A stretch of DNA of 64,000 nt from Chitinophagales bacterium (GCA_025057415.1 JANWXI010000002.1:3497-67496), one strand, 5' to 3'. Numbered from the stretch's first letter, positions 18,878-62,630 are shown. A program made the numbers and translations. Notes: generated by a model not told the origin, from the sequence alone.

Positions 18878-20491
18878 TTATGCTCTGATTGTTTCAGCTG
18901 GTTTCTGCTCTATGACCGGTTGATAGGGTTGAGCAAATGAAACGTCCTCGATGACACGCGAGGCAGGGGCGGCCTTAAGCCCGATTTTTTTCAGGAAAAA
19001 TCTTTTCAGGTGATAGAGGTTGTGCAGTGCATAAGCGATAAACTCAGGATTGCGTTGTTTAAAACCGGTGATGATGTCAGCCATCATGGAAAGGGGGCGC
19101 ACCAAAAAAGCAGGTATTAAAGAAGCTTTTTGCAGCGTGAGGTGAATTTTCCAGGAATCGGGTAATGCTGGCATGAGACGGAAAATGACTTCGTAGAGTT
19201 TGTACTGGTGCATTTTGTGTTTGTCTTTAACGTTTTCGGTGTTGCGGAAAAAGTAGAACTCTTCTCCCTCGTTGATTTTTCGCACCTGCTCGGGGGTCAG
19301 GTCGCCACGCTCTTCGGCCTCGCGCATCAGTTGGGTTCCGGGCAGGTAACACGTCCAGAAGGTTTGTACGCGCTTAGGGTGTGTTTTGGCGTAGAGTACA
19401 CGTGCATTTTCCTGTGCCTCCATTGGTTCGTTGGGCAGCCCGAACATGTGATCTACCTTGGCCAGCAAACCGTACTTACGCATCAGGTTAAGGGCATTCT
19501 CTACGTCTTCCGATCTTTCATAACGGAGTAAACTTTCTTTTTTAAAGCTTTCATCCATGCTTTGTACCCCCATCTGTATCCATTCGCATCCGCTTTCCTT
19601 TAGCCAGCGTGCGGTGTCTTCGTCCATATAGCGCGGATGGGTGAGAATGTTGTACGGGATATTGATTTCTTTTTTGTACTTCCAGGCAAATTCCTCCAGC
19701 CATTTTTTGCTGGTGGCGAAAACATCATCCTGAAAGTCCACTTTGTAAATTTTATATCTGCGCTTGGCGATTTTTAACTCAGCAATTACGTGATCGACAC
19801 TGCGCAGACGCACATACTTACCGCTTTTTTCTTCGGGCAACTTGGCAAAGAAGTTATTGAAACAGAAAGTGCAGCGATAGGGGCAACCCCGCGAGGCCAT
19901 GGTGAGGTAAAGGTCACCCAGACGCACGTAATCTTCCCACAACTCCTTGTCGTAAAACGGCAATGTGTCCAGATGTTGCAGAAAACCTTTCTGCATGCCA
20001 CTGATTACCTGTCCCTCTTTGTTTTTGAAGCTGGTATTAAAAATAGGGCGGGAGTAATCATCATTAGCTATGGTTTTAAGTATAGCCGGGAAGGCCTCAT
20101 CGCCTTCACCAACCACCACAAAATCGACCTGAGGGCGGGCAATTACCAGATGCGGCACGGCAGAGGGGTGTACTCCGCCAAATACGGTCTTGATGCGGGG
20201 GTTAATTTCTTTGGCTGTTTGTGCCACTTGCAGCATCCACTGATAAGTGGAAGTAAGGGCGCCAAATGCCAATACATCGGGCTGTTGGTCTTTTATGGCT
20301 TGTATAACATCGTGTGTATCATCAAAAAACGGTGCGATGGCGGGAAACTCAAGATTAAAACGGTCATGAAACAGGGAAGCGCTAAATGCCAAGCCCACCT
20401 TGTGTCCTTCGCGACGGGCAATGGCGCTGAGCTGGCTGATGCCGAGCTGCTCGGTGCCGAGGCCAACAAATGTTACTTTAAGCGGGCGCAT
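18878..20491 (-). CDS. B12-binding-domain radical SAM enzyme (class B)
   Basis: N-terminal Rossmann-like region (KVTFVGLG...DVLAFGALTS...VFGGVHPS...VVVGEGDEAF). Radical SAM cluster motif ASRGCPYRCTFC. Confidence 0.85.
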   Translation of the reverse strand: MRPLKVTFVGLGTEQLGISQLSAIARREGHKVGLAFSASLFHDRFNLEFPAIAPFFDDTHDVIQAIKDQQPDVLAFGALTSTYQWMLQVAQTAKEINPRIKTVFGGVHPSAVPHLVIARPQVDFVVVGEGDEAFPAILKTIANDDYSRPIFNTSFKNKEGQVISGMQKGFLQHLDTLPFYDKELWEDYVRLGDLYLTMASRGCPYRCTFCFNNFFAKLPEEKSGKYVRLRSVDHVIAELKIAKRRYKIYKVDFQDDVFATSKKWLEEFAWKYKKEINIPYNILTHPRYMDEDTARWLKESGCEWIQMGVQSMDESFKKESLLRYERSEDVENALNLMRKYGLLAKVDHMFGLPNEPMEAQENARVLYAKTHPKRVQTFWTCYLPGTQLMREAEERGDLTPEQVRKINEGEEFYFFRNTENVKDKHKMHQYKLYEVIFRLMPALPDSWKIHLTLQKASLIPAFLVRPLSMMADIITGFKQRNPEFIAYALHNLYHLKRFFLKKIGLKAAPASRVIEDVSFAQPYQPVIEQKPAETIRA

Positions 20492-20533
20492 GATTTTTCA
20501 GAAACACAAATTAAACATAAAAAGCGAAAAGCG

Positions 20534-20541: not shown

Positions 20542-20560
20542 AGCTACGAATATAACCGGA

Positions 20561-21331
20561 ATGTTGCCCGAAAGAGTGTCCGGACTTTCTGTTAAGGAAT
20601 TTTATACCTCATATTTACAAAAGTCCATACCGGTAATAATTACCGATGTAGTGACCGGTTGGCATTCCTATCGGGAATGGAGTATAGATTCATTTGCCAA
20701 AAAATATGGTCATAAAGCGGCCGGAGTAATGCGCATTAAAAACGGATTATCTGACGCAGATACCTACAACGAGCGCAATTCGGCATTGGTGCCTGTACAA
20801 CGGATTATTGAGTCGGTCAGCAAAGGGCTACACGGTGCAGACATTGTGTTGGCATCTCCCATTGATGCGTTGAAACCGGAGATAGATTACGATGTAGCAG
20901 TGCCGGAGTATTGTCGCCACGGAAAATTTTTTCGCAGCCGCATTTATGTGGGGCCAGGCGGTTTAGTAACCTCCCTGCATCAGGACCTGCCCGAAAATTT
21001 TTATGCCCTCATCAGGGGGCGTAAACACATTACGCTGTTTAAGCCCGCTGACCGAAAATACCTGTATCCAAACCCGGTGTGGAGCCGCCACCCCAATTTT
21101 GCGCGTTACAATCCCGATAAACCCGATAATATTGCTTTTCAGAGGGCGCGCTTTGCGCAACCTGTGGAGGTTTATCTGCAGGAGGGAGAAATGTTGTATA
21201 TCCCCTCATTGTGGTGGCACCACATCCGTAATCTGGAACCATCCATAGCGGTGAACTTTTGGTGGAGCGTGGGGTGGAAGGTAGTACCGGCCTGGGGATT
21301 GGCAAAGTTAAAGCAAATACTCAATGGCTGA
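20561..21331 (+). CDS. JmjC/cupin_8-type Fe(II)/2OG oxygenase
   Basis: FYTSYLQKSIPVIITDV...W...FAKKYG N-terminus. HxD in SLHQDLP. Distal His in LYIPSLWWHHIRN. Confidence 0.75.
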   Translation: MLPERVSGLSVKEFYTSYLQKSIPVIITDVVTGWHSYREWSIDSFAKKYGHKAAGVMRIKNGLSDADTYNERNSALVPVQRIIESVSKGLHGADIVLASPIDALKPEIDYDVAVPEYCRHGKFFRSRIYVGPGGLVTSLHQDLPENFYALIRGRKHITLFKPADRKYLYPNPVWSRHPNFARYNPDKPDNIAFQRARFAQPVEVYLQEGEMLYIPSLWWHHIRNLEPSIAVNFWWSVGWKVVPAWGLAKLKQILNG

Positions 21332-22481
21332 TGGGGATGTGGGTCGTATAAAGCGGGTACATCAGCGAGTCGTGCAACCAATATTGTTGTTTTTTGAAAA
21401 GTTCGAGCTTTAAAATGGCGGGTGTTTTTTTGTTTGTAGGTTTAATTTTTTCTGAATGGTTGAATGCTTTACCCGGTTGAAAGAAAGCACCCCCTTCAAC
21501 ACCGCCCAATTTGTTTTTATTGTAGTAATCGTACATTAAAGAGTCAAACTCAGCTTTGCGATTAAAGCGAATAAGGTAAGAGGTTATCGCTGTGGAATCA
21601 TTCGCAAGCGCCGTGCATTGAAGCAGTAGCTCTGTACATTGAGCTGTTACATGAGGCATTTCAAAAGAGGATGTAAGGCGCAGGGTAGCATGAGATACAT
21701 CATAAGTTGCAATCATGTTTTTAAATATCCCGTTATAAAGGTGGTGTGTCAACGCGGGCGGGTCTTTGTACCAAATGTAACGGTGTGGTTGTTTTTGGTT
21801 CGTCAAAGTGTGGCATGTGTTGCAACGGCGGAAATTATAGTTGCTGCCATAAAACTTGTAAGCGCTCTTGGCGGCATCTGTATGACAAGGCAAACAGGTA
21901 ATGTCAGTTTTAGCGAATAGTTCTGAGTATTTTGGATTACAAGGAGCAGAGTAAAAAGTACTCGTATATTTTTTATTGCTGCTCATTACACCCTGACCAT
22001 CAAAGTGGCAACTCAAGCAATCTACGCCGGTAGTTTTGTCTTTGTCTGTTTTTTTCCACGGGATGGGCTGATGGGGATAGTCCTTTTGCATCAACCACCC
22101 TAAGAGAGAGTCCGTGGCATGATGATGCTGAAACACACTTTGAAACATATTATCAGGAGCATGGCAACGCATACATTCTGTTTCGGAATTTTTCAATACG
22201 TGATTTTCATAAAAACTGCACTCGTACTTCGGCTGGCTTACATATTGTACGTGCTCCTGAATAGAGTAATAGGCGTGAGCGTGAGGGCCATTTAATTCCT
22301 GTTCGTAAATCTCCTGATGACATTTGCCACATTCCTTGTTTTGCTCTGAGCGGGTTAATTTGAAAAACTCTTCATTAAACATCGTGTCAATACGGTTACG
22401 ACATCTACTTATGGATAAAAACATGGCTACCGTGTATGAGAATGTTAACATAAACAACAAAAGATTTCGCACAGGGAGCAT
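21321..22481 (-). CDS. Membrane-anchored pentaheme c-type cytochrome
   Basis: N-terminal hydrophobic helix. Five CxxCH motifs read directly: CGKCH, CMRCH, CLSCH, CLPCH, CNTCH. Confidence 0.75.
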   Translation of the reverse strand: MLPVRNLLLFMLTFSYTVAMFLSISRCRNRIDTMFNEEFFKLTRSEQNKECGKCHQEIYEQELNGPHAHAYYSIQEHVQYVSQPKYECSFYENHVLKNSETECMRCHAPDNMFQSVFQHHHATDSLLGWLMQKDYPHQPIPWKKTDKDKTTGVDCLSCHFDGQGVMSSNKKYTSTFYSAPCNPKYSELFAKTDITCLPCHTDAAKSAYKFYGSNYNFRRCNTCHTLTNQKQPHRYIWYKDPPALTHHLYNGIFKNMIATYDVSHATLRLTSSFEMPHVTAQCTELLLQCTALANDSTAITSYLIRFNRKAEFDSLMYDYYNKNKLGGVEGGAFFQPGKAFNHSEKIKPTNKKTPAILKLELFKKQQYWLHDSLMYPLYTTHIPISH

Positions 22482-22512
22482 GTATATCGGGTTTTGGCGC
22501 CTGAATAATATT

Positions 22513-23934
22513 TCAGTTATTACTTCTGCAAAATTGTATGAATTTTTCCAGCAATTTAGTGAAAATACTCTTGCGGTATTTTACGGAGAGCAGTTTTTTA
22601 AAAAAAATTTCTTCGTTTTGCGGTATTTGCAGAAGCCCGCATTTCAGCCACTCTCTGTAAACGGATGAGTATAACCATACAAACCCGAATAGTTCCAGCT
22701 TAGTCCAAAAAGATAGATTTTTTTGCGGGAAAATACGTTTTGCCAACGATGCTGGTGAGTAAAATTGCCTGATAAAGTATTTTGCTCCCTCCATGATCAG
22801 TTCTTCATTTACACCATGGGGCAGGTAGCTGAGGTGAATACCATCGTATAGCGAATAATCATTACCTATATATGTACCTTTTTTAGCCATGTATTGGTGA
22901 GCTTTTGAGCCGGGGTTGTAAGTGAGGAATGTTAATTTTACGTAGAGCAATTTGTTGCGCTGGAAAAACGCCAAAGTATTTCGGAAAGTATCTAACGTTG
23001 TGTTCTCCAGTCCCAGTATAAAACCCGCGCCAATCTGAATGCCGTATGATTGCGTTTTACGGATTATCCGTTCATAGTTATCAATAATGTTAGTGTGCAT
23101 TTTATGTATGGAGCGCAATGCACTATCATCAATGGTTTCCAGACCGCAGTAAATGATTTTGCAATTGCTTTCGCGTAATGCATATAGTATCTCATCATCA
23201 TCCAGAAATTCAATACACATTTCAGCCATCCAGCCCGCAACGCGGTTTTTGCGCAGAAGCGATGCCACACGCAGCACATGCTCTTTACTTACTCCGAAAT
23301 TATAATCTATAATATTCACAAAACGTCCCGTGTAGTACTTTAGCTCACTATCCAACATACCATAATCTTTTAGGGCGTACGGTTTTTGCTGCATGATGTG
23401 TACCATGCAAAAAGAGCACTTTTCGGTGCAGCCGCGCGAAGTTTCCAATGGCATACCCATCACAGAACTGTATGCGTGGTAGTTATGCAATAATTCCCAT
23501 TTGGGGCTATTGAATACATGTAATACATCTCTGCCCGAACTATAAATCTTTTTTAGGTTGCCTGCTTGCCAATCTGTCATAAATTCGCTGGCGATATTTT
23601 CTATGAGACCACATATTGTGATATCTGCATGTTTACTGGCTTCCATGGGTAACATTGTAGGAAACTCACCGCCCCAAAGTACTTTGGCGTTAGGGTTGTA
23701 TCTACGAACTTTATGGGTGATTGCTACAGCAAAGCGGTAATTCTGTGCGGATACTTTAATGCCAACGCAAGCGTAATTTTCCCATGATATTTTGTCATCG
23801 TCTTCCAGATTAAGGTCAATAATCTCCGGTTCAAATATTTTTTCTAAACAAGATGCAACTACATAAAGCGAAAGTGACAGAATACCTTTGGGGTAAACCG
23901 GTAGGTCAATCAGCAGTAGTGGAGGTTTGTTCAT
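22513..23934 (-). CDS. B12-binding-domain radical SAM enzyme
   Basis: N-terminal Rossmann-like region (LLLIDLP...VGIKVSAQN...VLWGGEFPT). Motif SRGCTEKCSFC. Confidence 0.8.
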   Translation of the reverse strand: MNKPPLLLIDLPVYPKGILSLSLYVVASCLEKIFEPEIIDLNLEDDDKISWENYACVGIKVSAQNYRFAVAITHKVRRYNPNAKVLWGGEFPTMLPMEASKHADITICGLIENIASEFMTDWQAGNLKKIYSSGRDVLHVFNSPKWELLHNYHAYSSVMGMPLETSRGCTEKCSFCMVHIMQQKPYALKDYGMLDSELKYYTGRFVNIIDYNFGVSKEHVLRVASLLRKNRVAGWMAEMCIEFLDDDEILYALRESNCKIIYCGLETIDDSALRSIHKMHTNIIDNYERIIRKTQSYGIQIGAGFILGLENTTLDTFRNTLAFFQRNKLLYVKLTFLTYNPGSKAHQYMAKKGTYIGNDYSLYDGIHLSYLPHGVNEELIMEGAKYFIRQFYSPASLAKRIFPQKNLSFWTKLELFGFVWLYSSVYREWLKCGLLQIPQNEEIFFKKLLSVKYRKSIFTKLLEKFIQFCRSNN

Positions 23935-23955: not shown

Positions 23956-25497
23956 TTAACGAACCTGTTCGGCCGTAATCACTTTTGTTTTGGTTCGTTT
24001 GAGTAATTCTGCCAGCGCCCACTCAGCCCTTGATTCAAACCTGCGCAGGAGTAAGTTGCGCATGGTTCGTATTAGTCGCACCGGGCGAAAAAGATAATTG
24101 GTGAAGTAAAATACAAACAGATATACCAACGCATAGATGCGTAAAAGCGAAGGGTTTACCTTCTCATTATAGAAATGTATATTCCACAACGAGTCGGCCT
24201 GAATTATCTTCATAAAATACTCATCGTCTTCAATATTGATTTTTCCTTCGTCCACGAGGCGCTGAAACAGCGCACTACCGGGGTAAGGAGTAAAAATAGC
24301 GGGAGCCATGTCATTTACCCCTGCCCAGCTTGCCCTGATTAAAAACCAGATAGATTGCCATATATGACGGTGCCCTTCATCCGGAAAACCAATCATGAAG
24401 TTGATTTTAATGTTCATCTTTTCTTCACTGGAGTGGCGTATGGATTGCAGCATGCGGTCGAGTGAAACCTTCTTTTTAATGGTTTGCAGTATTTCCGGGC
24501 TGCCACTTTCGGGAGCATACGTGATATTACGACAACCCGAGCGATAAAGCCAGTAAGCCACTTCGCGGTCAATGGCCTCGCTACGCGTGCCGGCCGGTAT
24601 TTGCCAAACGATGTCTAAACGCCGTTGAACAATTTCTTTTGCAAATTCTATAATCCATCTTTTATTTATGACAGCGGTTAAATCGTAAAAGTCAAAATTA
24701 CACACACCGTATTTTCCCACATATAGTTCTATTTCATCAGCTACATCTGAAGCCGGCCGCATACTGTATTTGGTGCCCCACATCTGCGGACTACTACAAA
24801 ACGTACATTCATAAGGACAACCCCGTGTAGCCATCAAAGGCAATGCAAAGGAATTTTGAAGTTCTACACCAAAACTGATGCCATGCGATGTGTATTTTTG
24901 AAAAGGGAATATATCCCAATATGGCCGGGGGATTTGTGCTACTTCACGAATTCTTTTTCTTGGGGCAGTTCTTTGAGGTTGAGAATATTCATTTCTAAAA
25001 ACAATGCCGGGGACATTCTCTAAGGGAGAATTTTCAGCAAGGGCTTTTACCAGGTCTATTACAGTTTCTTCGCCTTCACCTAATACACAAGCAGTTAAGC
25101 ACTGTGTTTGCCTGATACAAAACTCCGGTACCGCAGTGGCATGCTCTCCGCCGGCAATGATGGGGACACCGGGAAAAGCATTCCCGATTTCATCAATCAG
25201 TTCCCTTTGATGTAACCAGTTGATACTGAACATCATGGTAATGCCGATTAGCTCAGTATCCGGGTGAATTAGCTGAATTATCTGACGTGACAACAGACCG
25301 TGAATAACTATGTCTTTTCTGCCTTTAAAAGCCACATACTGGTCGGGAGCTTCAGCAATGGCATCTATTATGTACACATCGTGCCCATCCGCCTTAAGGG
25401 CGCCGGCAATGTATGCTAATCCCAATGGTGGTGAGGGGCGCATGGATGCGCTCATAAGTTTCATCAGCCGTGACGGGTTTATCAAACAAACCTTCAT
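23956..25497 (-). CDS. B12-binding-domain radical SAM enzyme, family A paralog 1 (513 aa)
   Basis: MKVCLINPSRLMK...PPLGLAYIAGAL...IDAIAEAP...AGGEHAT...VLGEGEET. Motif ATRGCPYECTFCSSPQMWG. Block QIPAGTRSEAI. Aligns end to end with the ORFs at 41558, 44327 and 49317. Confidence 0.85.
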   Translation of the reverse strand: MKVCLINPSRLMKLMSASMRPSPPLGLAYIAGALKADGHDVYIIDAIAEAPDQYVAFKGRKDIVIHGLLSRQIIQLIHPDTELIGITMMFSINWLHQRELIDEIGNAFPGVPIIAGGEHATAVPEFCIRQTQCLTACVLGEGEETVIDLVKALAENSPLENVPGIVFRNEYSQPQRTAPRKRIREVAQIPRPYWDIFPFQKYTSHGISFGVELQNSFALPLMATRGCPYECTFCSSPQMWGTKYSMRPASDVADEIELYVGKYGVCNFDFYDLTAVINKRWIIEFAKEIVQRRLDIVWQIPAGTRSEAIDREVAYWLYRSGCRNITYAPESGSPEILQTIKKKVSLDRMLQSIRHSSEEKMNIKINFMIGFPDEGHRHIWQSIWFLIRASWAGVNDMAPAIFTPYPGSALFQRLVDEGKINIEDDEYFMKIIQADSLWNIHFYNEKVNPSLLRIYALVYLFVFYFTNYLFRPVRLIRTMRNLLLRRFESRAEWALAELLKRTKTKVITAEQVR

Positions 25498-41101: not shown

Positions 41102-41314
41102 GCCGACAGAATAACAAACATACAGGTTCTGTATGAATTTTTCGTACCCAAAAAATGTGTTGCGGGTTTGTATTGTGAAAGAAAAGGCGGATGTGGCTGC
41201 AGCGTGGGGAGCCATTACCGCATACATAACGCTACAGGCGAATACAAGGGTGTGAAGTAGCAAATGCTGGTGGGATTTATGTTGCATAGGTGAAGTAAAG
41301 TAGTAGCGTATAAG

Positions 41315-41440: not shown

Positions 41441-41557
41441 AAAAAAATATTAACCAGATTTACTTTGTGTTGCGTACAAAGGTTCAAGGGATAATTAGGA
41501 TGGGGAGTTTCTGATAGCGATAATTGATGAATAAGGATTATAGCGTATCTTTACCGC

Positions 41558-50864: not shown

Positions 50865-51247
50865 ATATGCTTGAAAAATACCTTTGGATAATATACATAT
50901 CAATATCTTTATTAATCGGTGAATTTCACCCGTTTTCACTGTACAAGATGTATAACGCTTTTCCTGACAATGCCACAATCATTGTAGTAAAAAATGCCGA
51001 ATCGCATTTTATTCCCATAAGGGAACATTTACGTTGTCGTTCGGCTGATCTTACGCACAAATACTATGCGTATCGAAAACATTACGGTCAATCGGACTCA
51101 GCAGCTTTAGAATATTTATGCAAACAGCTACACACATATCGTATCTCTGCAATGCAAAGTGATTTACGATTGTGTCTCTTGAATCTTTATAAAATTCCAA
51201 ATCAGATTACTACAGAAACATTTTGCCGGCATGAAGCATGTCGCTGA
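50861..51247 (+). CDS. Hypothetical small protein with one N-terminal hydrophobic helix
   Basis: 128-aa ORF that overlaps the upstream rSAM gene by 4 nt and the downstream membrane-protein gene by 17 nt. No family recognised. Confidence 0.45.
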   Translation: MNMLEKYLWIIYISISLLIGEFHPFSLYKMYNAFPDNATIIVVKNAESHFIPIREHLRCRSADLTHKYYAYRKHYGQSDSAALEYLCKQLHTYRISAMQSDLRLCLLNLYKIPNQITTETFCRHEACR

Positions 51248-55500: not shown

Positions 55501-56324
55501 ACGAATGGTTTTTGAATATCTGAAAGTGATAAATCTTCGGGGCGAATTGGTTGGAAGATAAAATCACTAATCGTATGTATGGGGGTATGAGTTTCAAAAA
55601 AGCTGCTGCTCTCAAAACGGAGCATTTCCTCTATAGAATCTATGACAAACTCGTAAAATGTCTTATCTCCCTCGTTCTTAGCAATAAAAATCTTTACTTT
55701 CTGGTGGTTTGGCACCATTATCAAAGTAGCTGCAATGCGCGGTGATGCCGAAGCATTAGCAGAGGATAAATGCAGTAAACGATGGTCATATACGATGGCC
55801 TCTCCGGCTTTTAATGGTACATATTGTACAAATCGGTCAGCAATTTCCCGTGCATACTTTCGATAAGTATCGGTAATGTTAATTCCCCGTATTTGATTGA
55901 CTACCCGGTGTGAACCCGGCACAAGTCCCAAAGTTGAGTTTTGCTGATCCGTGTCAGATAACGGCGCCCAGATGTTAAGTGATATATCTGTCTCCTCGTT
56001 CACATATCGCCAATCGGCATGTAGCGGCATCTCCGGCTCTCCGGGTGGTTTTGTAAAAAAATTACCCCAGAAGGGAATATGATATCGAAATAAATTTTCA
56101 ATAGCGGGTCGAAAAATTTCTTTGATGCCCTCATCCACTTTTTTGCGGTAAGTATAATCTTGGCGCATGAATGTGGTAAAAGGAGCTTTTGTAGAACTAT
56201 GAATCTCTGCGTAAAGATTTTTCAGCCGTTTAATATGTGGTTCCGGTAATAAACGGATTTTTACATAACCGAGTTCTGACAATGCGGTGTTTAGCTTGTC
56301 ATCGAAAAAAACATTGTGTATCAT
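55497..56324 (-). CDS. PhyH-family Fe(II)/2OG dioxygenase
   Basis: HxD in PLHADWRYVNEE and distal His in RLLHLSSAN. Confidence 0.75.
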   Translation of the reverse strand: MIHNVFFDDKLNTALSELGYVKIRLLPEPHIKRLKNLYAEIHSSTKAPFTTFMRQDYTYRKKVDEGIKEIFRPAIENLFRYHIPFWGNFFTKPPGEPEMPLHADWRYVNEETDISLNIWAPLSDTDQQNSTLGLVPGSHRVVNQIRGINITDTYRKYAREIADRFVQYVPLKAGEAIVYDHRLLHLSSANASASPRIAATLIMVPNHQKVKIFIAKNEGDKTFYEFVIDSIEEMLRFESSSFFETHTPIHTISDFIFQPIRPEDLSLSDIQKPFV

Positions 56325-57172
56325 AAAACAGGGTGCAATTCACTTTTGTGCACTTCCTTTTCTAACCATTGTATAATTTGCTGTTGTGTCAGCAGCGGAG
56401 GCGAGTAAGAGAACTTTTTGTATATGGGGAAACGGTGATCCTGATTACCCCATGCGTTTTCAAAAAAGAAAGTATAGGGAACTTCATATACCGTTACCAT
56501 GTTATCCGAAGGGCTATGGTAGTAGTAATACAGTTTCGCTTCCGGGTGTAACAATCCAAAATGTACTACGGGTCTGGGGTGTTTTGACCGGTTATCAGGA
56601 GAACCATGTAGTACTTTGTCGCCATAAACCACTAAATCCCCTGCTTTGGCATCTATAACATCGCAATATTTCAGTAGCATCGGCTCATATTCCAGATATG
56701 GCCAAACAGTATTGTGGGGCAACGGGTAATCAAAAAACTTATGACTTTTTCTTAAAACGTAAAGTTGCCCGTTTTCAGGTGTAGTATCAACTATCGGTAA
56801 CCAGATGTTTTGATAGGAAAACTCCGGTTCATCTTGCACACTGAAATCGCGGTGTAAGGTCACAGTGCTTTTTTCATTTGGGTTTTTGACTAGAAAAGTC
56901 GCAGCAGGGCACACATAGTTGGTAATATGCTCATCTAAGCGGGGCTTAACGATTTTAAGTATCTGGTCGCTGAGGTTAGCTGAAACATCATGGGGGATGT
57001 CGCATAAACTGTTCCACATGGTGGACGGCCAACCCTCACGAGGGTAATGTTGCTCAAATAACAAGCGAAGTTGCGTGATTTCGTCCCTGTTGAGCACGTT
57101 GCGGAGTAATACATATCCGTTTTCTTCATAACTTTCCTGTACGGCGGGGTCAATAAAGCGGGCAGTTTTCAT
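56321..57172 (-). CDS. PhyH-family Fe(II)/2OG dioxygenase
   Basis: HxD in TLHRDFSVQDE and distal His in DKVLHGSPDN. Confidence 0.75.
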   Translation of the reverse strand: MKTARFIDPAVQESYEENGYVLLRNVLNRDEITQLRLLFEQHYPREGWPSTMWNSLCDIPHDVSANLSDQILKIVKPRLDEHITNYVCPAATFLVKNPNEKSTVTLHRDFSVQDEPEFSYQNIWLPIVDTTPENGQLYVLRKSHKFFDYPLPHNTVWPYLEYEPMLLKYCDVIDAKAGDLVVYGDKVLHGSPDNRSKHPRPVVHFGLLHPEAKLYYYYHSPSDNMVTVYEVPYTFFFENAWGNQDHRFPIYKKFSYSPPLLTQQQIIQWLEKEVHKSELHPVL

Positions 57173-57267
57173 ATATTCATATTTTTATCAATGTAATTTT
57201 ACGATAAAATTATCGCTACCGCTAATATAGCAATTTGATTTTTATTTTTCTATTTGCATTAGATGAT

Positions 57268-58287
57268 ATGCGTCATTCCATTAATATGCACGTATGTTTG
57301 GCCGGTTACGGTTACTGGGGGAAAAACCTCCTCCGCAACCTCATTGAAACCCTTAGCGCTGACCGTATCAGTGTTGCAGAAATTATGCCCGAAAAGCGCG
57401 CTCAACTTAAACGACAATACCCTAATATTACCTGTTACGACTCTTTTGAAGATGCATTAGCTCAAAACCACAGCGCTGCCTTTGTAATCGCAACCGAAAC
57501 ACGCTACCATTATGACCATGCCCGCAAAGCGCTCCTCGCCGGCAAACACGTACTGGTAGAAAAACCCCTTACTACTTCCGTGGCGCAGGCAAAAGAGCTG
57601 TGCCGCATTGCAAAAGAGCGTGGGCTTATCTTAATGGTTGACCACATTTTCCGTTATCATCCGGTAGTGTGGAAAATGAAGGAATACTTCCGGGAAGATT
57701 ATCTCGGCCCCATTCATTATATGGATGCCACACGGGTAAACCTGGGTATTTATCAGGAAGATGTCAACGTACTTTGGGATCTTGCCTGTCACGACCTGAG
57801 TATTATCCAGTTTTTAGTTAATGAAAAACCTACATCGGTGAGAGCCATCGGCCGCATCAACCCTGAGCACGGCTCTGAAGACGTTGCTTACCTGTTTCTT
57901 TATTATCCATCCGGCATGCTGGTACAAATAAATTCTTCCTGGGCAAGTCCGGTAAAAATCCGCAAGATGATAGTGGGCGGTGAAAAACGCATGATGATTT
58001 ATGACGATATAGAGCCCACCAACAAACTCACCATTTATGAGTACGAGCCAAACATCCAACGCGATGAAAACAAAACCAAACTTACGGACTATCGCCTCGG
58101 AAATATCATTATCCCGAAAATTGAGCAGGGCGAAGCTCTGCGAAATGTAATCGTTGAGTTTTTGGAGTGTATTCAATGTGCGAAACAACCCGCTTCAGAC
58201 GGTTACAACGCCCTGGAAATCATCAATATTTTAGAAAAAGCACAACAATCTTTATCATTGGACGGAGCTATTGTCCCTTTACCTTGA
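57268..58287 (+). CDS. Gfo/Idh/MocA-family NAD(P)-dependent sugar oxidoreductase
   Basis: Rossmann N-terminus HVCLAGYGYWGKNLLRNL, plus the HVLVEKPL and FRYHP blocks typical of the family. Start uncertain: ATG 57268 or 57286 rather than the listed TTG 57235. Confidence 0.8.
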   Translation: MRHSINMHVCLAGYGYWGKNLLRNLIETLSADRISVAEIMPEKRAQLKRQYPNITCYDSFEDALAQNHSAAFVIATETRYHYDHARKALLAGKHVLVEKPLTTSVAQAKELCRIAKERGLILMVDHIFRYHPVVWKMKEYFREDYLGPIHYMDATRVNLGIYQEDVNVLWDLACHDLSIIQFLVNEKPTSVRAIGRINPEHGSEDVAYLFLYYPSGMLVQINSSWASPVKIRKMIVGGEKRMMIYDDIEPTNKLTIYEYEPNIQRDENKTKLTDYRLGNIIIPKIEQGEALRNVIVEFLECIQCAKQPASDGYNALEIINILEKAQQSLSLDGAIVPLP

Positions 58288-58979
58288 ACTACTCGTTTAT
58301 TATCTTTTGTTACAATGAAGAACACAACCTTATCCGTGTATATGAGCGGTTGAAAGCATTTTGCTCTCGTAGTCATTCAGAGCACGAAATCATTATTGTG
58401 GATGACGGTAGCACGGATGGTACTCCGGACATATGTAAAAAGTTAAAAGAAGAAAACCCGGGTATAATAGTGATTACTCATGCCGTTAATGCTGGTATAG
58501 GATTGGCATTGCGGAGTGGTTACGAAGCTGCTACACGCGAATACGTATGCGCCATTCCGGGCGATGGACAATTCGATATTGAGGAGTTGAATGCCGTACG
58601 TCCCTTTACAAAAGAAACATTCTACTCCTTCTACCGCCCGCAAACTAATTACAACTCATATCGCAAACTACTCACCTGGTTGAATCGTCTTTTTAATCAA
58701 CATATTCTTGGGCTTTACCTTCGCGATGTGAACTGGGTAAAAGTTTACCGCCGCGAGCATTTGATGATAACAGCGCCTGTGTTAAGAAGTTCTCTGATTG
58801 AAAGTGAAATATGTGCCAAGCTAAATCGAATGGGCATCATGCCCATAGAAATTCCATCGGTATATCATCCCCGCCAATCCGGCAAAGCAAAAGGGGGCAG
58901 CTGGAATACGCTTCGCAAAGCCCTTGCCGAAACGCTCAAATTATGGTGGTTAGTAGTTACATTTAAACCCCGAAAATGA
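58284..58979 (+). CDS. Family 2 glycosyltransferase (polyprenyl-phosphate sugar synthase-like)
   Basis: YSFIIFCYNEEHNL...IIIVDDGSTDGT...IPGDGQFD. The start is proposed at TTG 58284, which overlaps the upstream TGA (TTGA). The listed upstream 39 codons overlap the oxidoreductase gene. Confidence 0.75.
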   Translation: MNYSFIIFCYNEEHNLIRVYERLKAFCSRSHSEHEIIIVDDGSTDGTPDICKKLKEENPGIIVITHAVNAGIGLALRSGYEAATREYVCAIPGDGQFDIEELNAVRPFTKETFYSFYRPQTNYNSYRKLLTWLNRLFNQHILGLYLRDVNWVKVYRREHLMITAPVLRSSLIESEICAKLNRMGIMPIEIPSVYHPRQSGKAKGGSWNTLRKALAETLKLWWLVVTFKPRK

Positions 58980-59803
58980 AACTCGCCCTCGCCCAACTCC
59001 TTGTGGAAGGAACTGAGCCCGAGCGCAACTTTGAGCGTGCCGAAAAGCTTATCGCCCGCGCAGCTTCTGCCGCCTGCCAGCTCACCCTGCTGCCCGAAAC
59101 AATCGACTTCGCCTGGACACACCCCGATGGCATCCGCCACGCAAAACCCATCCCCGGTGAATACAGCGACCACTTTTGTCTGTTGGCAAAAAAATATAAT
59201 ATGTGGATTTGCGTGGGGTTGACTGAAAAAACTTCGCATGGCAACTACAATACAGCCGTATTAATTGACAACAACGGCAACCTTGTCGGTCTGCACCGAA
59301 AAATCAATCTCCTTACGGTAGAGTTTCCGTACTACCTCGTGGGCCAGAAGTTAGAGGTTTACGATACTCCATTTGGGAAAATAGGCATGAATATTTGTGC
59401 CGATAATTATCTGGATGCCTTAGATATAGGCCATGTGCTTGCGCGCATGGGCGCGCAGCTCATCCTCTCTCCGTCTTCATGGACAGTCAACCACTCGGTA
59501 ACTGAAGCTGAAGACCCCTATCGCGATAAATGGATAAAACCCTTCAGCGTGCTCGCCAGGGCACACGGGCTGGTGATAGCCAGCGCCACGAGCGTGGGAT
59601 ACATCGTGGGCGGCCCGTACGAAGGAAAGAAAATGGTGGGTTGTTCCCTGTGTGTAGGCCCGCAAGGGATAATCGCACAAGGCATGTTCAACGAGTTTGC
59701 CGGTGATTTAGCCATTGCCGAATTCGACATGCCACAGCGCCCGCTCAAAGGCACCCAAATCGGTGAAGCATTGCGCAGTCAGGGCTTTAAGTTCTATAAT
59801 TGA
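58976..59803 (+). CDS. Carbon-nitrogen hydrolase (nitrilase superfamily)
   Basis: Glu-Lys-Cys triad contexts: LTLLPET, GLHRKINL and GMNICADN. Confidence 0.8.
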   Translation: MKLALAQLLVEGTEPERNFERAEKLIARAASAACQLTLLPETIDFAWTHPDGIRHAKPIPGEYSDHFCLLAKKYNMWICVGLTEKTSHGNYNTAVLIDNNGNLVGLHRKINLLTVEFPYYLVGQKLEVYDTPFGKIGMNICADNYLDALDIGHVLARMGAQLILSPSSWTVNHSVTEAEDPYRDKWIKPFSVLARAHGLVIASATSVGYIVGGPYEGKKMVGCSLCVGPQGIIAQGMFNEFAGDLAIAEFDMPQRPLKGTQIGEALRSQGFKFYN

Positions 59804-59806
59804 CGC

Positions 59807-61003
59807 ATGAGTGAGGGGGTTATTGTTAATGGCATACTTAAGAAAATCCCGTACCGGCGCTGTGTGCGCTGCATCAGCGACACTACTTGTCCCGGCATCA
59901 CCTTCGATAATAACGGAGTGTGCAACTTTTGCCACCTGCACGACAAGTGGTGTCGCATGTATCCGAATGACGAGCGCGGGCAGCAAATCTGGAACAACAC
60001 GCTAAAGAAAATTAAGCGCGATGGGCGTGGCAAAAAATACGATTGCATCGTGGGCATCAGCGGGGGCCGCGATAGTTCGTATGTGCTTCACCTTGCGGTT
60101 ACCAAATACCAACTGCGCCCCCTGGCTGTTCACTTCAACGATGGCTTCGACAACCCCGTGGCGGGCGAAAATATGGTAAACATCACCCGCAAACTGGGCG
60201 TGGACCTGCGCACCATCACCAGCGACTGGCGCGAAGCCAAAGACCTGAAAATCTCTTTCCTGAAAGCGAGCGTGCCCGACCTTAACCAGGGCACCGATGT
60301 AGGCATTGCAGCCGCCTGTTACGGAGTGGCATGCAAAGAAGGTTTAAAACACATCATCTACGGGCAATCGTTCCGCACCGAAGGTATAAAACCCATAAGC
60401 TGGGCGTATATGGTGGGCGATTACCTCAACGATGTGCAAAATAAATTCGGAACCGTAAAGCTGCGCCCCTGGAAGCCCGAAGACCCCAACTATCATTTCG
60501 GGTGGAAACAACTCTTCTATTACAGTTTCATAAAAGGCATTCGCGCATACTCTCCGTTGTATTACGAGAAATACATCCGCCGCGAGGCAGAAGAAATTTT
60601 AAAGCGCGAGTACAATTGGGTGTATCCGGGTGCGCATTACTACGATGATTTATACTGGTCGCTGATTACCTATGTTCACCGCGTAAAATTCAACATTGAC
60701 TTTCGCCTCAACGCATACAGCGCTCTTATTCGCGATGGACAAATGGACCGCGACTGGGCGCTGGAGGCCGTCAAAAAACCCTATGTGATGGAAGACCCGC
60801 GCATCATAGACCTTTGCCTGAAACGCCTTGCCGTTTCGCGCGAGGATTTTGAAGCATGGCTGCGCCTGCCCCCTAAAACCTTCCGCGATTACAACACCGG
60901 CTATTCACTGATGTGGCGCCTGCGCCCGCTCATCAAGCTCATCAGCAAGCTGGGCTTTTTCCCCGAAATTGTTTACGACAAATACTTTTTGTGTGGCGAA
61001 TGA
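59807..61003 (+). CDS. N-acetyl-sugar amidotransferase (WbpG-like PP-loop ATPase)
   Basis: N-terminal Cys pairs CVRCISDTT...GVCNFCHLHD. PP-loop CIVGISGGRDSSY. The overall length is typical of the LPS-biosynthesis WbpG family as I recall it. Confidence 0.75.
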   Translation: MSEGVIVNGILKKIPYRRCVRCISDTTCPGITFDNNGVCNFCHLHDKWCRMYPNDERGQQIWNNTLKKIKRDGRGKKYDCIVGISGGRDSSYVLHLAVTKYQLRPLAVHFNDGFDNPVAGENMVNITRKLGVDLRTITSDWREAKDLKISFLKASVPDLNQGTDVGIAAACYGVACKEGLKHIIYGQSFRTEGIKPISWAYMVGDYLNDVQNKFGTVKLRPWKPEDPNYHFGWKQLFYYSFIKGIRAYSPLYYEKYIRREAEEILKREYNWVYPGAHYYDDLYWSLITYVHRVKFNIDFRLNAYSALIRDGQMDRDWALEAVKKPYVMEDPRIIDLCLKRLAVSREDFEAWLRLPPKTFRDYNTGYSLMWRLRPLIKLISKLGFFPEIVYDKYFLCGE

Positions 61004-62630
61004 AAAATACATCTTAGGCATCAACGGAGGCGTGCGCCCCGGTTATCAGGACGTATCGGCTGTGCTCTTGCGCGGCGGCAGCATCGTAGCCGCTGTGGAG
61101 GAAGAGCGCCTCAACCGCATCAAGCACGCCCCGGGCCAATTGCCCATACTCGCTGTAAAAGAAGTGTTACGCATTGCGGGCATACATATCACCGATGTTT
61201 CTACACTCGCATTTCACGGCAGCACCTGGCAGCCGGCTATTGAAGACATATTAAAAAATCATTTCACAAGTTATTTCGGCCATTGTCCCCCCATCCGGCG
61301 CTTTCATCATCACGATTGCCACGCGGCATCGGCTTACTACGCCTCGGGTTTTGACGAAGCCCTCATCCTCACCGTTGACGGCTCCGGTGACGGCATCAGT
61401 ACCCAGGTAGCTGTTGGCAGGCACGGTACGCTGCAAGTGCTCGAACGCTACGCCCGCCCGCAGAGTTTGGGTTTGTTTTATTCTATGATAACACAGATCT
61501 GCGGCTTCACACGTGATATGGACGAGTACAAACTCATGGGCTTAGCCGCCTTTGGTAAACCAACTCCCGAACGGCTGGAGGCGCTGCTGCAAATCACCGA
61601 TAGCGGCTATCGCCTCAACGAAGCATACCTCGTACCTATCCTTCCCGGCCAACCCGGTCCCTCGCGCTACGAAATGCTCTACACTGAAAAATTGCTCCAA
61701 CTCACAGGCACAAAACGCAGAACCGATACACACATCACAGATGAATACAAAAACCTGGCCGCCTCGGCACAATTCTTACTGGAGCAGGCGCTGTGTGCCA
61801 TTGTAAAAAAATATGTGCGCGAAACCGGCATCCGAAAAATCTGTATGGCAGGAGGCGTAGCGCTCAATTGCCTCGCCAACATGAAAATTGAACAACTACA
61901 CGAAGTAGATGAACTGTTCATTCAGCCCGCCGCAAGCGATGCGGGCATATCGCTCGGGGCAGCGTACCTTGCCGCGGCAGAGCAGGGCATCACACAGTTT
62001 GAAAAACAAACCCACGTGTTTTACGGCAGCGAATACAGCGATGATGAAATTGCCCGTGTGCTGCAAAGCTGCGCCTGCAAAGCCCAACGCGAACCCGACA
62101 TCACCGATGCTGCTGCCCGGGCGCTCGCGCAAAAAAAAGTCATCGGATGGTTCCAGGGGCGCATGGAGTTTGGTCCCCGCGCCCTCGGCAACCGCAGCAT
62201 CCTGGCAGACCCGGCAACACCCGACATACAATCTATCGTCAACCAAAAAATCAAATTCCGCGAGAGCTTCCGCCCCTTTGGCGCAAGCGTCCTGCAGGAC
62301 GACTTCCACCGCTACTTCATCGCCAGATGCACCGAAGCGCCATACATGACAAAAGTTTTTCATGTAAAAGAACCATACCGCGCGCTCCTGCGCGGCGTGA
62401 CCCATGCCGATGGCACCTGCCGCGTCCAAACCGTCACCGACAGCCAAAATCCCCTCTACGCCCGCCTGCTGCGCGCCTTCAAATCCCTCACCGGCCACAG
62501 CGTACTCCTCAACACCAGCTACAACCTCAGCCACGAACCCATCGTCTGCACCCCGCGCCACGCCATCGCATCCTTCTGCGCCAGCGGCTTAGACGAACTC
62601 TTCCTTGGCACATACCGCCTCACAAAATAA
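60993..62630 (+). CDS. NodU/CmcH-family carbamoyltransferase
   Basis: ILGINGG...DVSAVLL...VAAVEEERLNRIKH N-terminus, HHHDCHAASAYY, and C-terminal MEFGPRALGNRSILADP and NTSYNL blocks. Start is either GTG 60993 or TTG 60969. Confidence 0.85.
   Translation: MANEKYILGINGGVRPGYQDVSAVLLRGGSIVAAVEEERLNRIKHAPGQLPILAVKEVLRIAGIHITDVSTLAFHGSTWQPAIEDILKNHFTSYFGHCPPIRRFHHHDCHAASAYYASGFDEALILTVDGSGDGISTQVAVGRHGTLQVLERYARPQSLGLFYSMITQICGFTRDMDEYKLMGLAAFGKPTPERLEALLQITDSGYRLNEAYLVPILPGQPGPSRYEMLYTEKLLQLTGTKRRTDTHITDEYKNLAASAQFLLEQALCAIVKKYVRETGIRKICMAGGVALNCLANMKIEQLHEVDELFIQPAASDAGISLGAAYLAAAEQGITQFEKQTHVFYGSEYSDDEIARVLQSCACKAQREPDITDAAARALAQKKVIGWFQGRMEFGPRALGNRSILADPATPDIQSIVNQKIKFRESFRPFGASVLQDDFHRYFIARCTEAPYMTKVFHVKEPYRALLRGVTHADGTCRVQTVTDSQNPLYARLLRAFKSLTGHSVLLNTSYNLSHEPIVCTPRHAIASFCASGLDELFLGTYRLTK

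Follow-up and report, generated by a model that had tools for sequence, protein, structure and literature searches.

Organization of the locus

We analyzed a stretch of 64,000 nucleotides (64 kb; the window) from a metagenome-assembled genome (MAG) of a Chitinophagales bacterium (GCA_025057415.1 JANWXI010000002.1:3497-67496), in which positions 18878-62630 hold a dense locus of radical S-adenosylmethionine (radical-SAM) enzymes, Fe/2-oxoglutarate-dependent (Fe/2OG) oxygenases and membrane proteins. Our working interpretation, which we hold tentatively, is that this is a hypervariable locus of Chitinophagales for the assembly and decoration of an envelope glycan (lipoglycan), working on polyprenyl-phosphate-linked sugars. 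The locus contains 38 open reading frames (ORFs), 19 of which encode radical-SAM or Fe/2OG enzymes, and a single gap of more than 100 bp (270 bp at 41288-41557). These counts agree with an initial annotation made from the sequence alone, which had described 38 packed genes with hardly any gaps above 100 bp. The strand switches at least nine times, and the locus is therefore not one operon. The GC content of individual genes ranges from 0.31 to 0.55, that of the flanks being approximately 0.49; GC mosaicism is common among surface-antigen loci.

The g35-g36 junction was recovered at 100% identity in an independent SRA assembly, and contigs of a second MAG keep the gene orders g35-g36-g37 and g25-g24-g23-g22-g21-g20 at 41-92% amino-acid identity. 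Because these gene orders are repeated in independent data, the region is no assembly artefact.

Radical-SAM enzymes

Eight locus proteins carry the CxxxCxxC motif. Seven of them (g16, g19, g20, g33, g35, g37 and g41) combine the Pfam domains B12-binding (PF02310) and Radical_SAM (PF04055), the B12-binding score of g19 (30.2 bits) lying slightly under the Pfam cut-off of 32.1. The eighth, g25, has a Radical_SAM domain without a B12 domain, and its C-terminus (CAAGRGYIFIDASGTAYPC...CxxxCxxC) is SPASM/twitch-like. Pfam and motifs thus gave the same division into seven B12-type enzymes and one SPASM/twitch-like enzyme as the initial annotation.

18878-20491, minus strand: g16, B12-binding radical-SAM enzyme "B12a" (Pfam; best NCBIfam match HpnJ, 114 bits against a cut-off of 578)
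22513-23934, minus strand: g19, divergent B12-binding radical-SAM enzyme "B12b" (Radical_SAM above cut-off, all NCBIfam models below)
23956-25497, minus strand: g20, "B12x" radical-SAM enzyme (best NCBIfam matches BchE and the Sden_1168 P-methylase, well below cut-off)
29825-30820, minus strand: g25, radical-SAM enzyme with SPASM/twitch-like C-terminus (best NCBIfam match the PTO1314 family, 84 bits against 306)
38599-39993, minus strand: g33, B12-binding radical-SAM enzyme "B12c", remotely HpnJ-like over its full length (HpnJ, 156 bits against 578)
41558-43099, plus strand: g35, B12x radical-SAM enzyme (Pfam, NCBIfam, paralog comparison)
44327-45862, plus strand: g37, B12x radical-SAM enzyme (Pfam, NCBIfam, paralog comparison)
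49317-50864, plus strand: g41, B12x radical-SAM enzyme (Pfam, NCBIfam)

The four B12x paralogs (g20, g35, g37 and g41) are 40-54% identical to each other. Among the related loci described below (designated by L and a number), g16 is the most conserved gene, with 58-85% identity, and a g25-type gene lies close to a UbiA gene in L004, L005, L009 and L081. The class-B subfamily models used for comparison were HpnJ, HpnP/R, PhpK/Sden_1168, BchE, the C-methyltransferases of ribosomally synthesized and post-translationally modified peptides (RiPPs), KedN5, Mmp10 and BzaD. The nearest models were the Sden_1168 P-methylase and BchE for the four B12x proteins and HpnJ for g16, g19 and g33, and the distant solved relatives were AprD4, CysS, TokK, TsrM and OxsB. 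The locus proteins share an N-terminal B12-binding region and a radical-SAM core with characterized class-B enzymes (GenK/GenD1, HpnJ, HpnP/HpnR, Fom3, PhpK/Sden_1168, CysS, TokK), but unlike these none of the seven reached any curated NCBIfam subfamily cut-off, the top score being that of g41 against Sden_1168 (193 against 575 bits). The B12x family comprises at least 4,797 proteins at E<=1e-30, which carry generic names or the labels "BchE" and "YgiQ", in our judgement wrongly.

Three pathway assignments suggested by these matches were rejected. Phosphonate tailoring, suggested by Sden_1168/PhpK, was dismissed since the window contains no phosphoenolpyruvate mutase. The hopanoid and tetrapyrrole readings (HpnJ and BchE matches) were dismissed because the scores are far below cut-off and scaffold genes are absent: no squalene-hopene cyclase or other cyclase family was found in the window, and HpnJ and HpnH reached at most 156 bits (cut-off 578) and 41 bits (cut-off 225), respectively.

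Fe/2OG oxygenases

Eleven genes encode Fe/2OG oxygenases with 12 domains, a count obtained with Pfam that matches the previous one.

20561-21331, plus strand: g17, Cupin_8/JmjC-type oxygenase (Pfam Cupin_8, E 1e-44; HQD at residue 140)
25514-26248, minus strand: g21, AspH/OlsC/LpxO-superfamily hydroxylase (Asp_Arg_Hydrox, E 3e-37; OlsC 114 bits against 450, LpxO 67 bits against 500)
29021-29857, plus strand: g24, AspH/OlsC/LpxO-superfamily hydroxylase (Pfam, NCBIfam)
36543-37316, minus strand: g31, AspH/OlsC/LpxO-superfamily hydroxylase with a C-terminal transmembrane (TM) segment (Pfam, NCBIfam)
45869-46729, plus strand: g38, PhyH-family oxygenase with HQD (Pfam, motif)
48421-49278, minus strand: g40, PhyH-family oxygenase (Pfam)
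52063-53019, minus strand: g44, PhyH-family oxygenase (Pfam)
53010-53837, minus strand: g45, WelO5-family oxygenase of the hydroxylase type, with HQD (Pfam, motif)
53815-55500, minus strand: g46, double-domain PhyH oxygenase of 561 amino acids (aa) (Pfam, two PhyH stretches)
55497-56324, minus strand: g47, PhyH-family oxygenase (Pfam)
56321-57172, minus strand: g48, PhyH-family oxygenase (Pfam)

The six PhyH genes (g38, g40, g44, g46, g47 and g48) and the JmjC gene had been recognized before, and Pfam agrees. The three proteins annotated as LpxO/AspH-like with an HxD...H signature (g21, g24 and g31) are indeed Asp_Arg_Hydrox proteins, but they carry HxG motifs with no HxD at the core position, which we take to be the AspH-type metal site. 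The protein previously called P4H-like, g45, is placed by Pfam in the WelO5 family. A role as WelO5-like halogenase was rejected for g45, because it retains HQD and is therefore of the hydroxylase type.

None of the three AspH-like proteins met an NCBIfam equivalog cut-off, their scores of 105-114 bits for OlsC (cut-off 450) and 64-90 bits for LpxO (cut-off 500) being four- to eight-fold too low. Among the solved relatives of the PhyH profile, human phytanoyl-CoA hydroxylase (PhyH) ranked on top, accompanied by MysH and by SnoK, SnoN and EvdO2, which act on sugars. Homologs of the double-domain protein g46, of 560-650 aa, are present in L014, L023, L037, L050 and L079.

Search for scaffold and precursor genes

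No polyketide synthase (PKS), nonribosomal peptide synthetase (NRPS), fatty acid synthase (FAS), terpene cyclase, Wzx or Wzy domain was found in the locus proteins. The domain and ORF searches thereby support the initial annotation, which had seen none of these and no precursor peptide. The search for a precursor peptide with an NHLP/Nif11 leader was likewise negative: the gaps leave too little space, and a comparison of 30 loci revealed no conserved, free-standing small ORF. The conserved "small ORF families" in these loci, considered as RiPP precursors, turned out to be alternative-frame shadows within large genes. The only long gap lies between the divergent genes g34 and g35:

41288-41557, no strand: intergenic region, holding one copy of a GC-rich repeat

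It contains no credible peptide ORF.

These results bear on the idea that the enzymes modify a peptide or protein, either a proteusin-like RiPP or a secreted protein that is hydroxylated (AspH, JmjC, PhyH), C-methylated by the B12 radical-SAM enzymes and then glycosylated. The polytheonamide pathway combines genes for B12 radical-SAM enzymes, a 2OG oxygenase and a radical-SAM epimerase, and the gene content of the locus recalls this combination. Moreover, protein hydroxylation is the classic activity of AspH, FIH/JmjC and related 2OG enzymes, whose co-clustering in bacteria has been noted earlier, with protein substrates proposed (PMC2938197). Nevertheless, the intergenic space leaves no room for a precursor gene, the shadow ORFs offer no candidate, and neither leader-peptide, protease, LanM or YcaO families nor a collagen-like or tail-collar substrate protein were found among the locus proteins. 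The B12x proteins score 70-111 bits on the RiPP C-methyltransferase model, which has a cut-off of 282. We consider a peptide or protein substrate highly improbable.

Predicted GT-C glycosyltransferases and the M56x family

The predicted lipid-linked glycan machinery, on which the envelope-glycan interpretation is built, includes three large membrane proteins.

27277-28932, minus strand: g23, "M56x" membrane protein, putative GT-C-fold glycosyltransferase (same family as g39; fold from the g39 model)
32807-34198, minus strand: g28, predicted GT-C glycosyltransferase, PMT_2/ArnT-like (from PMT_2 matches of homologs with approximately 31% identity)
46737-48440, plus strand: g39, "M56x", predicted GT-C-fold glycosyltransferase (AlphaFold model and Foldseek)

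The proteins g23 and g39 (NCBI NZM35_00535) had been described as two paralogous membrane proteins of 550 aa; NZM35_00535 is encoded on a contig of 164,869 bp. They gave no BLASTP match with each other, but profile iteration from either of them converges on the same 29 proteins of related loci, showing that they are distant paralogs. The M56x profile matched neither PDB sequences nor Pfam, where no model for the family exists. Word-indexed homolog searches with g39 alone or with a 25-sequence profile returned essentially g39 itself only, and HMMER, run in full against 1.84 billion representative proteins, yielded just 56 M56x clusters.

The AF2 model of g39, computed with 39 family members as input, has a pLDDT of 89.5 and a pTM of 0.91. 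Its top Foldseek matches in the PDB are all GT-C enzymes, namely DPY19, ArnT (TM-score 0.47/0.49), AftA, yeast and human STT3, and EmbC, and are followed by unrelated transporters of low probability. GT-C enzymes carry catalytic acids just after TM1, and M56x keeps an acidic [ED]xY[DE] motif directly after TM1. The residues R183/E185, E239 and D275 and a C-terminal soluble domain with a CxC motif are also conserved. The assignment of M56x to GT-C comes from structure comparison only, and hhalign gave no match between M56x and the g28 family. For g28, no direct Pfam match was obtained, but its homologs at L005:2664-4454 and L009:2857-4497, with approximately 31% identity, match PMT_2 above cut-off.

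Thus, the locus is predicted to encode three GT-C-fold enzymes and not one, as had been annotated, because the g39 model has this fold, g23 belongs to the same family and the g28 homologs match PMT_2. GT-C enzymes use polyprenyl-phosphate-linked sugars at the outer face of the cytoplasmic membrane. On the strength of the model, M56x would be a rare and previously unannotated GT-C family.

Candidates for donor synthesis, sugar modification and export

Eight further genes encode candidates for the synthesis, flipping and modification of lipid-linked sugars and for export.

26249-27277, minus strand: g22, LPG_synthase_TM/flippase-like polytopic membrane protein (PF03706; approximately six TM segments)
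31958-32785, minus strand: g27, UbiA-family polyprenyl-phosphate/prenyl transferase (Pfam UbiA; NDYADRYND and DIEID motifs)
43086-44303, plus strand: g36, Wzt/TagH-type ABC ATPase with C-terminal extension, 405 aa (PDB and NCBIfam comparison)
57235-58287, plus strand: g49, GFO/IDH/MocA sugar oxidoreductase (Pfam; nearest curated model UDP-GlcNAc 3-dehydrogenase, 149 bits against 450)
58167-58979, plus strand: g50, GT2 glycosyltransferase (Pfam; no TM segment)
58976-59803, plus strand: g51, CN-hydrolase of the nitrilase superfamily (Pfam, E 1e-36)
59807-61003, plus strand: g52, WbuX-family N-acetyl sugar amidotransferase (TIGR03573, 216 bits, above the cut-off of 203)
60969-62630, plus strand: g53, NodU/CmcH-type carbamoyltransferase (Carbam_trans_N and Carbam_trans_C; NodU model, 125 bits against 1000)

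Pfam, NCBIfam and motifs agree with the earlier report of a UbiA protein, a GT-C protein, a flippase-like protein and a sugar-modification block. The TIGR00374 flippase-like domain of g22 scores 39.9 bits, slightly under the cut-off of 43.2. In g27, the Asp-rich motifs NDxxDxxxD and DxxxD are intact; among curated models, decaprenyl-phosphate phosphoribosyltransferase comes nearest (46 bits against 234), and a search of the PDB gave no match. For g50, ArnC entries (E 9e-9) are the only solved relatives that align over the full length; ArnC is the undecaprenyl-phosphate 4-deoxy-4-formamido-L-arabinose (Ara4FN) transferase. Homologs of g50 have 229-247 aa, and its true start is probably near 58287. 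The CN-hydrolase g51 is presumably the glutaminase partner of g52.

The ATPase g36 had been called Wzt-like, in agreement with its best solved relative, the full-length Wzt of Aquifex (8dku/7k2t, 404 aa, E 2e-52). The aligned region, residues 29-314, extends past the ATPase core to residue 314. Further solved relatives are TarH/TagH and mycobacterial RfbE, and the best NCBIfam matches were TagH and Wzt, below equivalog cut-offs, with NodI also matched. The partner permease Wzm is absent from the window, as noted before, but permeases of this type are encoded inside four related loci (L014, L023, L031 and L050), where ABC2_membrane proteins above the Pfam cut-off are located beside, or a few genes from, PhyH genes. 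The polytopic protein g43 was considered as the missing Wzm but is not recognized as one: it has no match in Pfam, NCBIfam or the PDB, and an HMM built from the Wzm proteins of the relatives misses it.

In L003, L005 and L009 the Wzt-type ATPase is lengthened to 640-675 aa (L003:15148-17091, L005:15009-16931, L009:14900-16927), and in the L005 homolog Pfam recognizes ABC_tran followed by a C-terminal PhyH domain. We know of no description of a Wzt-PhyH oxygenase fusion. Such a fusion means that oxygenases are physically tied to the exporter, and, as predicted from domain content, no other observation connects the oxygenases as directly with a lipid-linked polymer that is exported.

The same genes invite the question whether a secreted small glycoside or lipo-oligosaccharide is made, resembling an aminoglycoside, an orthosomycin or a Nod factor and leaving the cell by ABC-2 export. 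B12 radical-SAM, PhyH, carbamoyltransferase and GFO families do occur in aminoglycoside or orthosomycin pathways, and AprD4, SnoK, SnoN and EvdO2 are among the solved relatives; g53 is NodU-like, and the match of g36 to NodI points the same way. Three periplasm-facing GT-C proteins, five anchored SGNH proteins, a flippase-like protein and a UbiA protein are, on the other hand, foreign to such pathways, and neither an aminocyclitol synthase nor a chitin-oligomer synthase was found among the locus proteins. A secreted product of this kind is in our view very unlikely.

Anchored SGNH proteins, cytochrome c and the g42-g43 pair

The remaining genes of the locus encode the following proteins.

21321-22481, minus strand: g18, membrane-anchored pentaheme cytochrome c (five CxxCH motifs; weak multiheme Pfam matches)
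30817-31986, minus strand: g26, N-terminally anchored SGNH/GDSL-like protein (weak Lipase_GDSL_2; GGS...DDCH; one TM segment)
34271-35386, minus strand: g29, anchored SGNH-like paralog (motif only, GGS108...DDCH334 as in g26; no Pfam match)
35373-36500, minus strand: g30, anchored SGNH/GDSL protein (Pfam; 38% identical to g34)
37347-38597, minus strand: g32, anchored SGNH/GDSL protein (Pfam, TM)
39983-41287, minus strand: g34, anchored SGNH/GDSL protein (Pfam, TM)
50861-51247, plus strand: g42, 128-aa protein without family match (pairs with g43)
51231-52094, plus strand: g43, 287-aa polytopic membrane protein (no Pfam, NCBIfam or PDB match)

Both the pentaheme cytochrome c and the five TM-anchored SGNH paralogs had been noticed earlier; the former is supported by the five CxxCH motifs of g18, and of the latter four were recovered by Pfam and g29 through the GGS...DDCH motif alone. 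The gene for the periplasmic cytochrome adjoins the divergent B12 radical-SAM gene (g18-g19, 21321-23934), an arrangement also seen at L014:13367-16098, and a cytochrome homolog is present in L012 too. The g42-g43 pair is kept at L006:324-1611 and L008:19942-21223, with a soluble protein of 128-147 aa and a polytopic protein of 286-289 aa, both without family. A single-sequence AF2 model of g43 was unusable (pLDDT 51).

Recurrence in related loci

A one-genome-per-species scan with an alignment of the four B12x paralogs gave 395 relatives, from which 75 loci were kept; exact-protein look-ups gave further related loci. Six core families were defined (B12 radical-SAM, AspH, PhyH, M56x, LPG_synthase_TM and Wzt). 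Of the 47 loci with a length of 15 kb or more, 16 contain at least four of these families, and all 16 loci are from Bacteroidota, mostly Chitinophagales MAGs. This co-occurrence of the same families across 16 other loci argues against chance. Their combination and order differ in each of the 16, but several modules recur: GT-C (g28)-UbiA-radical-SAM/SPASM-M56x; B12x-M56x-AspH-PhyH(n)-Wzt; GFO-GT2, with or without CN-hydrolase-WbuX-carbamoyltransferase; the cytochrome c with B12b; and g42-g43. The CN-hydrolase-WbuX-carbamoyltransferase trio is kept in L022 and L040 and absent from L079.

Outside Bacteroidota, where B12x homologs are frequent in Vicinamibacterales and Bryobacterales, the gene is mostly found alone or together with a gene for a GT2 protein or a carbamoyltransferase. 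In Vicinamibacterales a PMT/PMT_2 GT-C gene directly follows the B12x gene (L024:9992-14337, and the same region in L025, L026, L028, L030, L033 and L036), and a GDSL gene lies directly after the GT-C gene in L024, L026, L028 and L030 and otherwise a few kb downstream. This B12x-GT-C-GDSL grouping of Acidobacteria mirrors the arrangement in Bacteroidota. In total, 15 of 82 B12x genes are located directly beside a recognized GT-C gene.

Genes for membrane proteins of the FA_desaturase family are found inside four relatives (L011:16618-17628, L018:4189-5097, L021:8901-9923 and L078:1-66), a hint that at least some substrates carry a lipid part. Pairs of DUF1800/DUF1501 genes are located at the edge of two related clusters (L078:2992-5916 and L080:18283-21548).

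Flanking regions and signs of possible recombination

The left flank (13467-18867) contains a MoxR AAA+/DUF58 (vWA)/DUF4350/DUF4129/SpoIIM-like operon. It is separated from g16 by a 10-bp gap and is on the same strand, so g16 may be co-transcribed with it. Farther left, g9 (10226-11773, plus strand) is a 515-aa ORF without family match that shares 315 bp with the DAHP synthase/chorismate mutase gene g8, and the full-length ORF is probably not a real gene; g10 (11997-13472) is likewise without annotation. A sorting domain for type IX secretion was recognized in one flanking protein. The window gave no match in scans for Rfam families and tRNA genes.

The right flank consists of approximately 500 bp of GC-rich DNA with repeats, followed by a gene that leaves the window. 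This partial ORF, in low-GC DNA (63155-64000, plus strand), encodes an Abi-P2-type abortive-infection reverse transcriptase with a YRDD motif, the nearest solved relative being 7r08 (E 2.6e-62). Thus, a defence or mobile region adjoins the locus on this side. Three copies of a dispersed, GC-rich intergenic repeat (46-154 bp) are present, at 11870-12026, 41394-41439 and 62715-62868; they are 89-93% identical and partly inverted. The second copy sits within the locus, in its sole long gap, and the third at the right boundary. The repeat looks like a repetitive extragenic palindromic (REP)-type element and may mark recombination joints.

These features could also mean that there is no single pathway and that the region is a recombination-prone island of independent envelope modules (UbiA-radical-SAM-GT-C, B12x-M56x-AspH, PhyH-Wzt and GFO-GT2-amidotransferase) acting on different acceptors. 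The varying combination and order of modules in the relatives, with the CN-hydrolase-WbuX-carbamoyltransferase trio missing in L079, the repeated strand switches, the wide GC range, and the reverse transcriptase and dispersed repeats at the flanks would all be expected of such an island. It would not explain why the same families co-localize within 20 kb in 16 independent Bacteroidota loci, nor the extremely tight packing of the genes; the Wzt-PhyH fusion and the adjacency of B12x and GT-C genes, moreover, join the modules functionally. We therefore regard a mere collection of modules as distinctly unlikely. The initial annotation had itself raised independent distribution of sub-blocks. The blocks do shuffle between genomes and differ in GC content, which counts against one fixed pathway, but their families still co-localize. 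The shuffling and the GC spread fit a combinatorial, hypervariable surface-structure locus.

A proposed envelope-glycan pathway

According to the envelope-glycan interpretation, the ArnC-like GT2 protein g50 and the UbiA protein g27 would load sugars on polyprenyl phosphate at the cytoplasmic face, while g49 and g51-g53 would oxidize, amidate and carbamoylate sugars. The B12 radical-SAM enzymes, the SPASM enzyme and the Fe/2OG oxygenases may tailor polyprenyl-phosphate monosaccharides or a polymer linked to undecaprenyl diphosphate (Und-PP) in the cytoplasm, by chemistry that could be C-methylation, rearrangement or epimerization, and hydroxylation. The protein g22 would flip the lipid-linked donors, and Wzt (g36) would export the polymer together with a Wzm from outside the window, roles suggested by transporter homology. 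In the periplasm, g23, g28 and g39 would attach the tailored sugars to an acceptor not encoded in the locus, and the anchored SGNH proteins may add or remove acyl groups. Since modules recombine between genomes, each lineage would have a different enzyme set. The tailoring step has precedents. In mycobacterial arabinan synthesis and in three-component pentofuranose systems, auxiliary cytoplasmic enzymes remodel the polyprenyl-phosphate sugar before flipping and transfer by a GT-C enzyme; donors are tailored before flipping by, for example, DprE1/E2, ArnD and the Citrobacter pentofuranose epimerase (PMC11127046).

The description of the region as "all tailoring, no scaffold" in the initial annotation was thus overstated, as three GT-C proteins, a UbiA protein, an ArnC-like GT2 protein, a flippase-like protein and Wzt make up a lipid-linked glycan core. 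Of the novel envelope lipid, lipoglycan or glycan that it had proposed as product, the glycan or lipoglycan is the best-supported class, whereas the lipid part, which was based on LpxO, PhyH and hopanoid and glycerol dialkyl glycerol tetraether (GDGT) methylases, is hypothetical. It had also envisaged an ordinary O-antigen locus as a conventional explanation; relatives do carry Wzm, but these loci bear little resemblance to an ordinary O-antigen cluster. Its statement that no characterized pathway combines these enzymes agrees with our results: the B12 radical-SAM enzymes, the SPASM enzyme, the UbiA protein and the AspH-like proteins score far below every NCBIfam cut-off, and no description of such a cluster type was found in the literature, a paper on the lipocone superfamily making no mention of the locus families.

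Several observations weigh against an envelope glycan. The only Leloir-type glycosyltransferase in 18878-62630 is g50, and neither an initiating phosphoglycosyltransferase of the WecA/WbaP type nor a phosphoribosyl phosphatase (HAD or PAP2 domain) was found among the 38 proteins. Searches of the 64-kb window for Wzm with tblastn and an HMM gave no match, and Pfam Wzt_C was not detected in g36 at E<=0.01. The Foldseek E-values for the g39 model are modest (1.6e-3 to 2e-2), and hhalign found no sequence-profile link between M56x and PMT-like GT-C enzymes. The enzyme substrates are all putative, and 19 radical and oxygenase enzymes far exceed the needs of any known glycan repeat unit.

Other adverse observations point to membrane-lipid or lipid A remodelling, in which the oxygenases and B12 radical-SAM enzymes would act by hydroxylation and C-methylation on the acyl or isoprenoid chains of an envelope lipid (for example lipid A, an aminolipid or a glycolipid), ArnT-like GT-C enzymes would add head-group sugars, and SGNH proteins would de- and re-acylate. 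The best curated matches of g21, g24 and g31, OlsC and LpxO, are lipid acyl 2-hydroxylases; the top solved match of the PhyH profile is phytanoyl-CoA hydroxylase; and the model nearest to g16, g19 and g33 is HpnJ, an enzyme of hopanoid side-chain synthesis. ArnT, which gave the best TM-score for the M56x model, modifies lipid A by glycosylation and does not act on a polysaccharide. The FA_desaturase-family genes in L011, L018, L021 and L078 are usually lipid-acting, and the bacterial orders in which B12x homologs are common, Vicinamibacterales and Bryobacterales, make methyl-branched tetraether lipids. However, these matches are three- to eight-fold under the curated cut-offs, and scaffold genes for fatty acids, isoprenoids, hopanoids or ether lipids were not found in the window. 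The Wzt/Wzm exporters and the Wzt-PhyH fusion suggest an Und-PP-linked polymer, the sugar block and the WbuX enzyme work on sugars, and the sugar-acting enzymes SnoK, SnoN and EvdO2 are also top solved relatives of the PhyH profile. On balance we find lipid remodelling rather unlikely, but it is the main and a serious rival of the envelope glycan.

Returning to the envelope glycan, a more specific version is possible, but we entertain it with some doubt: Chitinophagales and related Bacteroidota would make an undescribed class of envelope glycans. In these, sugars still attached to polyprenyl phosphate or Und-PP would be C-methylated or rearranged by B12 radical-SAM enzymes and then hydroxylated by sets of PhyH, AspH and JmjC oxygenases, some of them fused to Wzt, and M56x, a GT-C family specialized for such unusual donors, would install them in the periplasm. 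The B12x-GT-C(-SGNH) groups of Acidobacteria would make this chemistry widespread. To our knowledge, radical C-H functionalization of unactivated carbons of lipid-linked sugars has been described only for small-molecule antibiotics and one hopanoid step. If true, the envelope-glycan interpretation would widen the known chemistry of bacterial surface glycans. The Wzt-oxygenase fusions would represent a new coupling of polymer tailoring to export, and the large orphan B12x radical-SAM family gains a testable context. The isolate names suggest activated sludge, freshwater and other environmental samples as the origin of the carriers, habitats in which a hypervariable surface polymer likely matters for phage and grazer interactions and for floc formation.

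Comparison with known systems

Among the closest parallels are the three-component systems of extracytoplasmic glycosylation, that is, the Gtr type and the pentofuranose type of Citrobacter youngae O1/O2 (GT136) (Kelly et al. 2024, PMC11127046). In these systems a membrane enzyme loads polyprenyl phosphate with a sugar, for which the UbiA protein g27 and the ArnC-like g50 are candidates in the locus, a dedicated membrane protein is proposed as donor flippase, periplasmic attachment of the sugar is carried out by a GT-C enzyme that has an additional soluble domain at its C-terminus, and auxiliary cytoplasmic enzymes diversify the lipid-linked donor. They differ in having a MATE, SMR or GtrA flippase, which is not seen among the locus proteins, where the LPG_synthase_TM-like g22 is present instead. 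In addition, g27 has no fused or adjacent phosphoribosyl phosphatase and scores far under the phosphoribosyltransferase cut-off, g23 and g39 form a separate, unannotated GT-C family, and the single auxiliary epimerase contrasts with radical-SAM and Fe/2OG enzymes in unprecedented numbers.

Mycobacterial arabinogalactan assembly shares with the locus a Wzt-type exporter, a UbiA-family synthase of a polyprenyl-phosphate sugar (DPPR synthase) and several GT-C enzymes (Aft/Emb), and AftA and EmbC are among the structural matches of g39, and RfbE is among the matches of g36. The host of the locus, in contrast, is a diderm member of Bacteroidota, no homologs of GlfT, DprE1 or DprE2 and no Wzm were found in the window, and mycobacteria lack the radical-SAM and 2OG tailoring layer that the locus has. 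ABC-transporter-dependent O-antigen systems, whose Wzt has a carbohydrate-binding domain at the C-terminus (E. coli O9a, Aquifex aeolicus), resemble the locus in the match of g36 to the full-length Aquifex Wzt in length and sequence, in the ABC-2 permeases of the relatives and in being encoded by a hypervariable, low-GC locus. Unlike them, the locus is nearly devoid of Leloir glycosyltransferases and has no recognizable chain terminator and no Wzm in the window, and some relatives fuse Wzt to a PhyH oxygenase. The hopanoid module HpnH-HpnI-HpnJ-HpnK-HpnL likewise combines a GT2 protein, a B12 radical-SAM enzyme acting on a lipid-bound sugar (HpnJ), a second radical-SAM enzyme and a membrane protein, HpnL, which we take to be LPG_synthase_TM-like. 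In this case, the locus differs by the lack of squalene-hopene cyclase and other hopanoid genes, by HpnJ and HpnH scores far below cut-off, and by the lack of a match between g22 and the HpnL model.

Membership of the locus in the three-component, arabinogalactan and Wzm/Wzt systems is only partial, and nothing known joins these systems with eight radical-SAM enzymes and 12 oxygenase domains. We therefore rate the locus as following the known logic of lipid-linked envelope glycans, the new elements being a tailoring layer of unprecedented scale and a new, predicted GT-C family.

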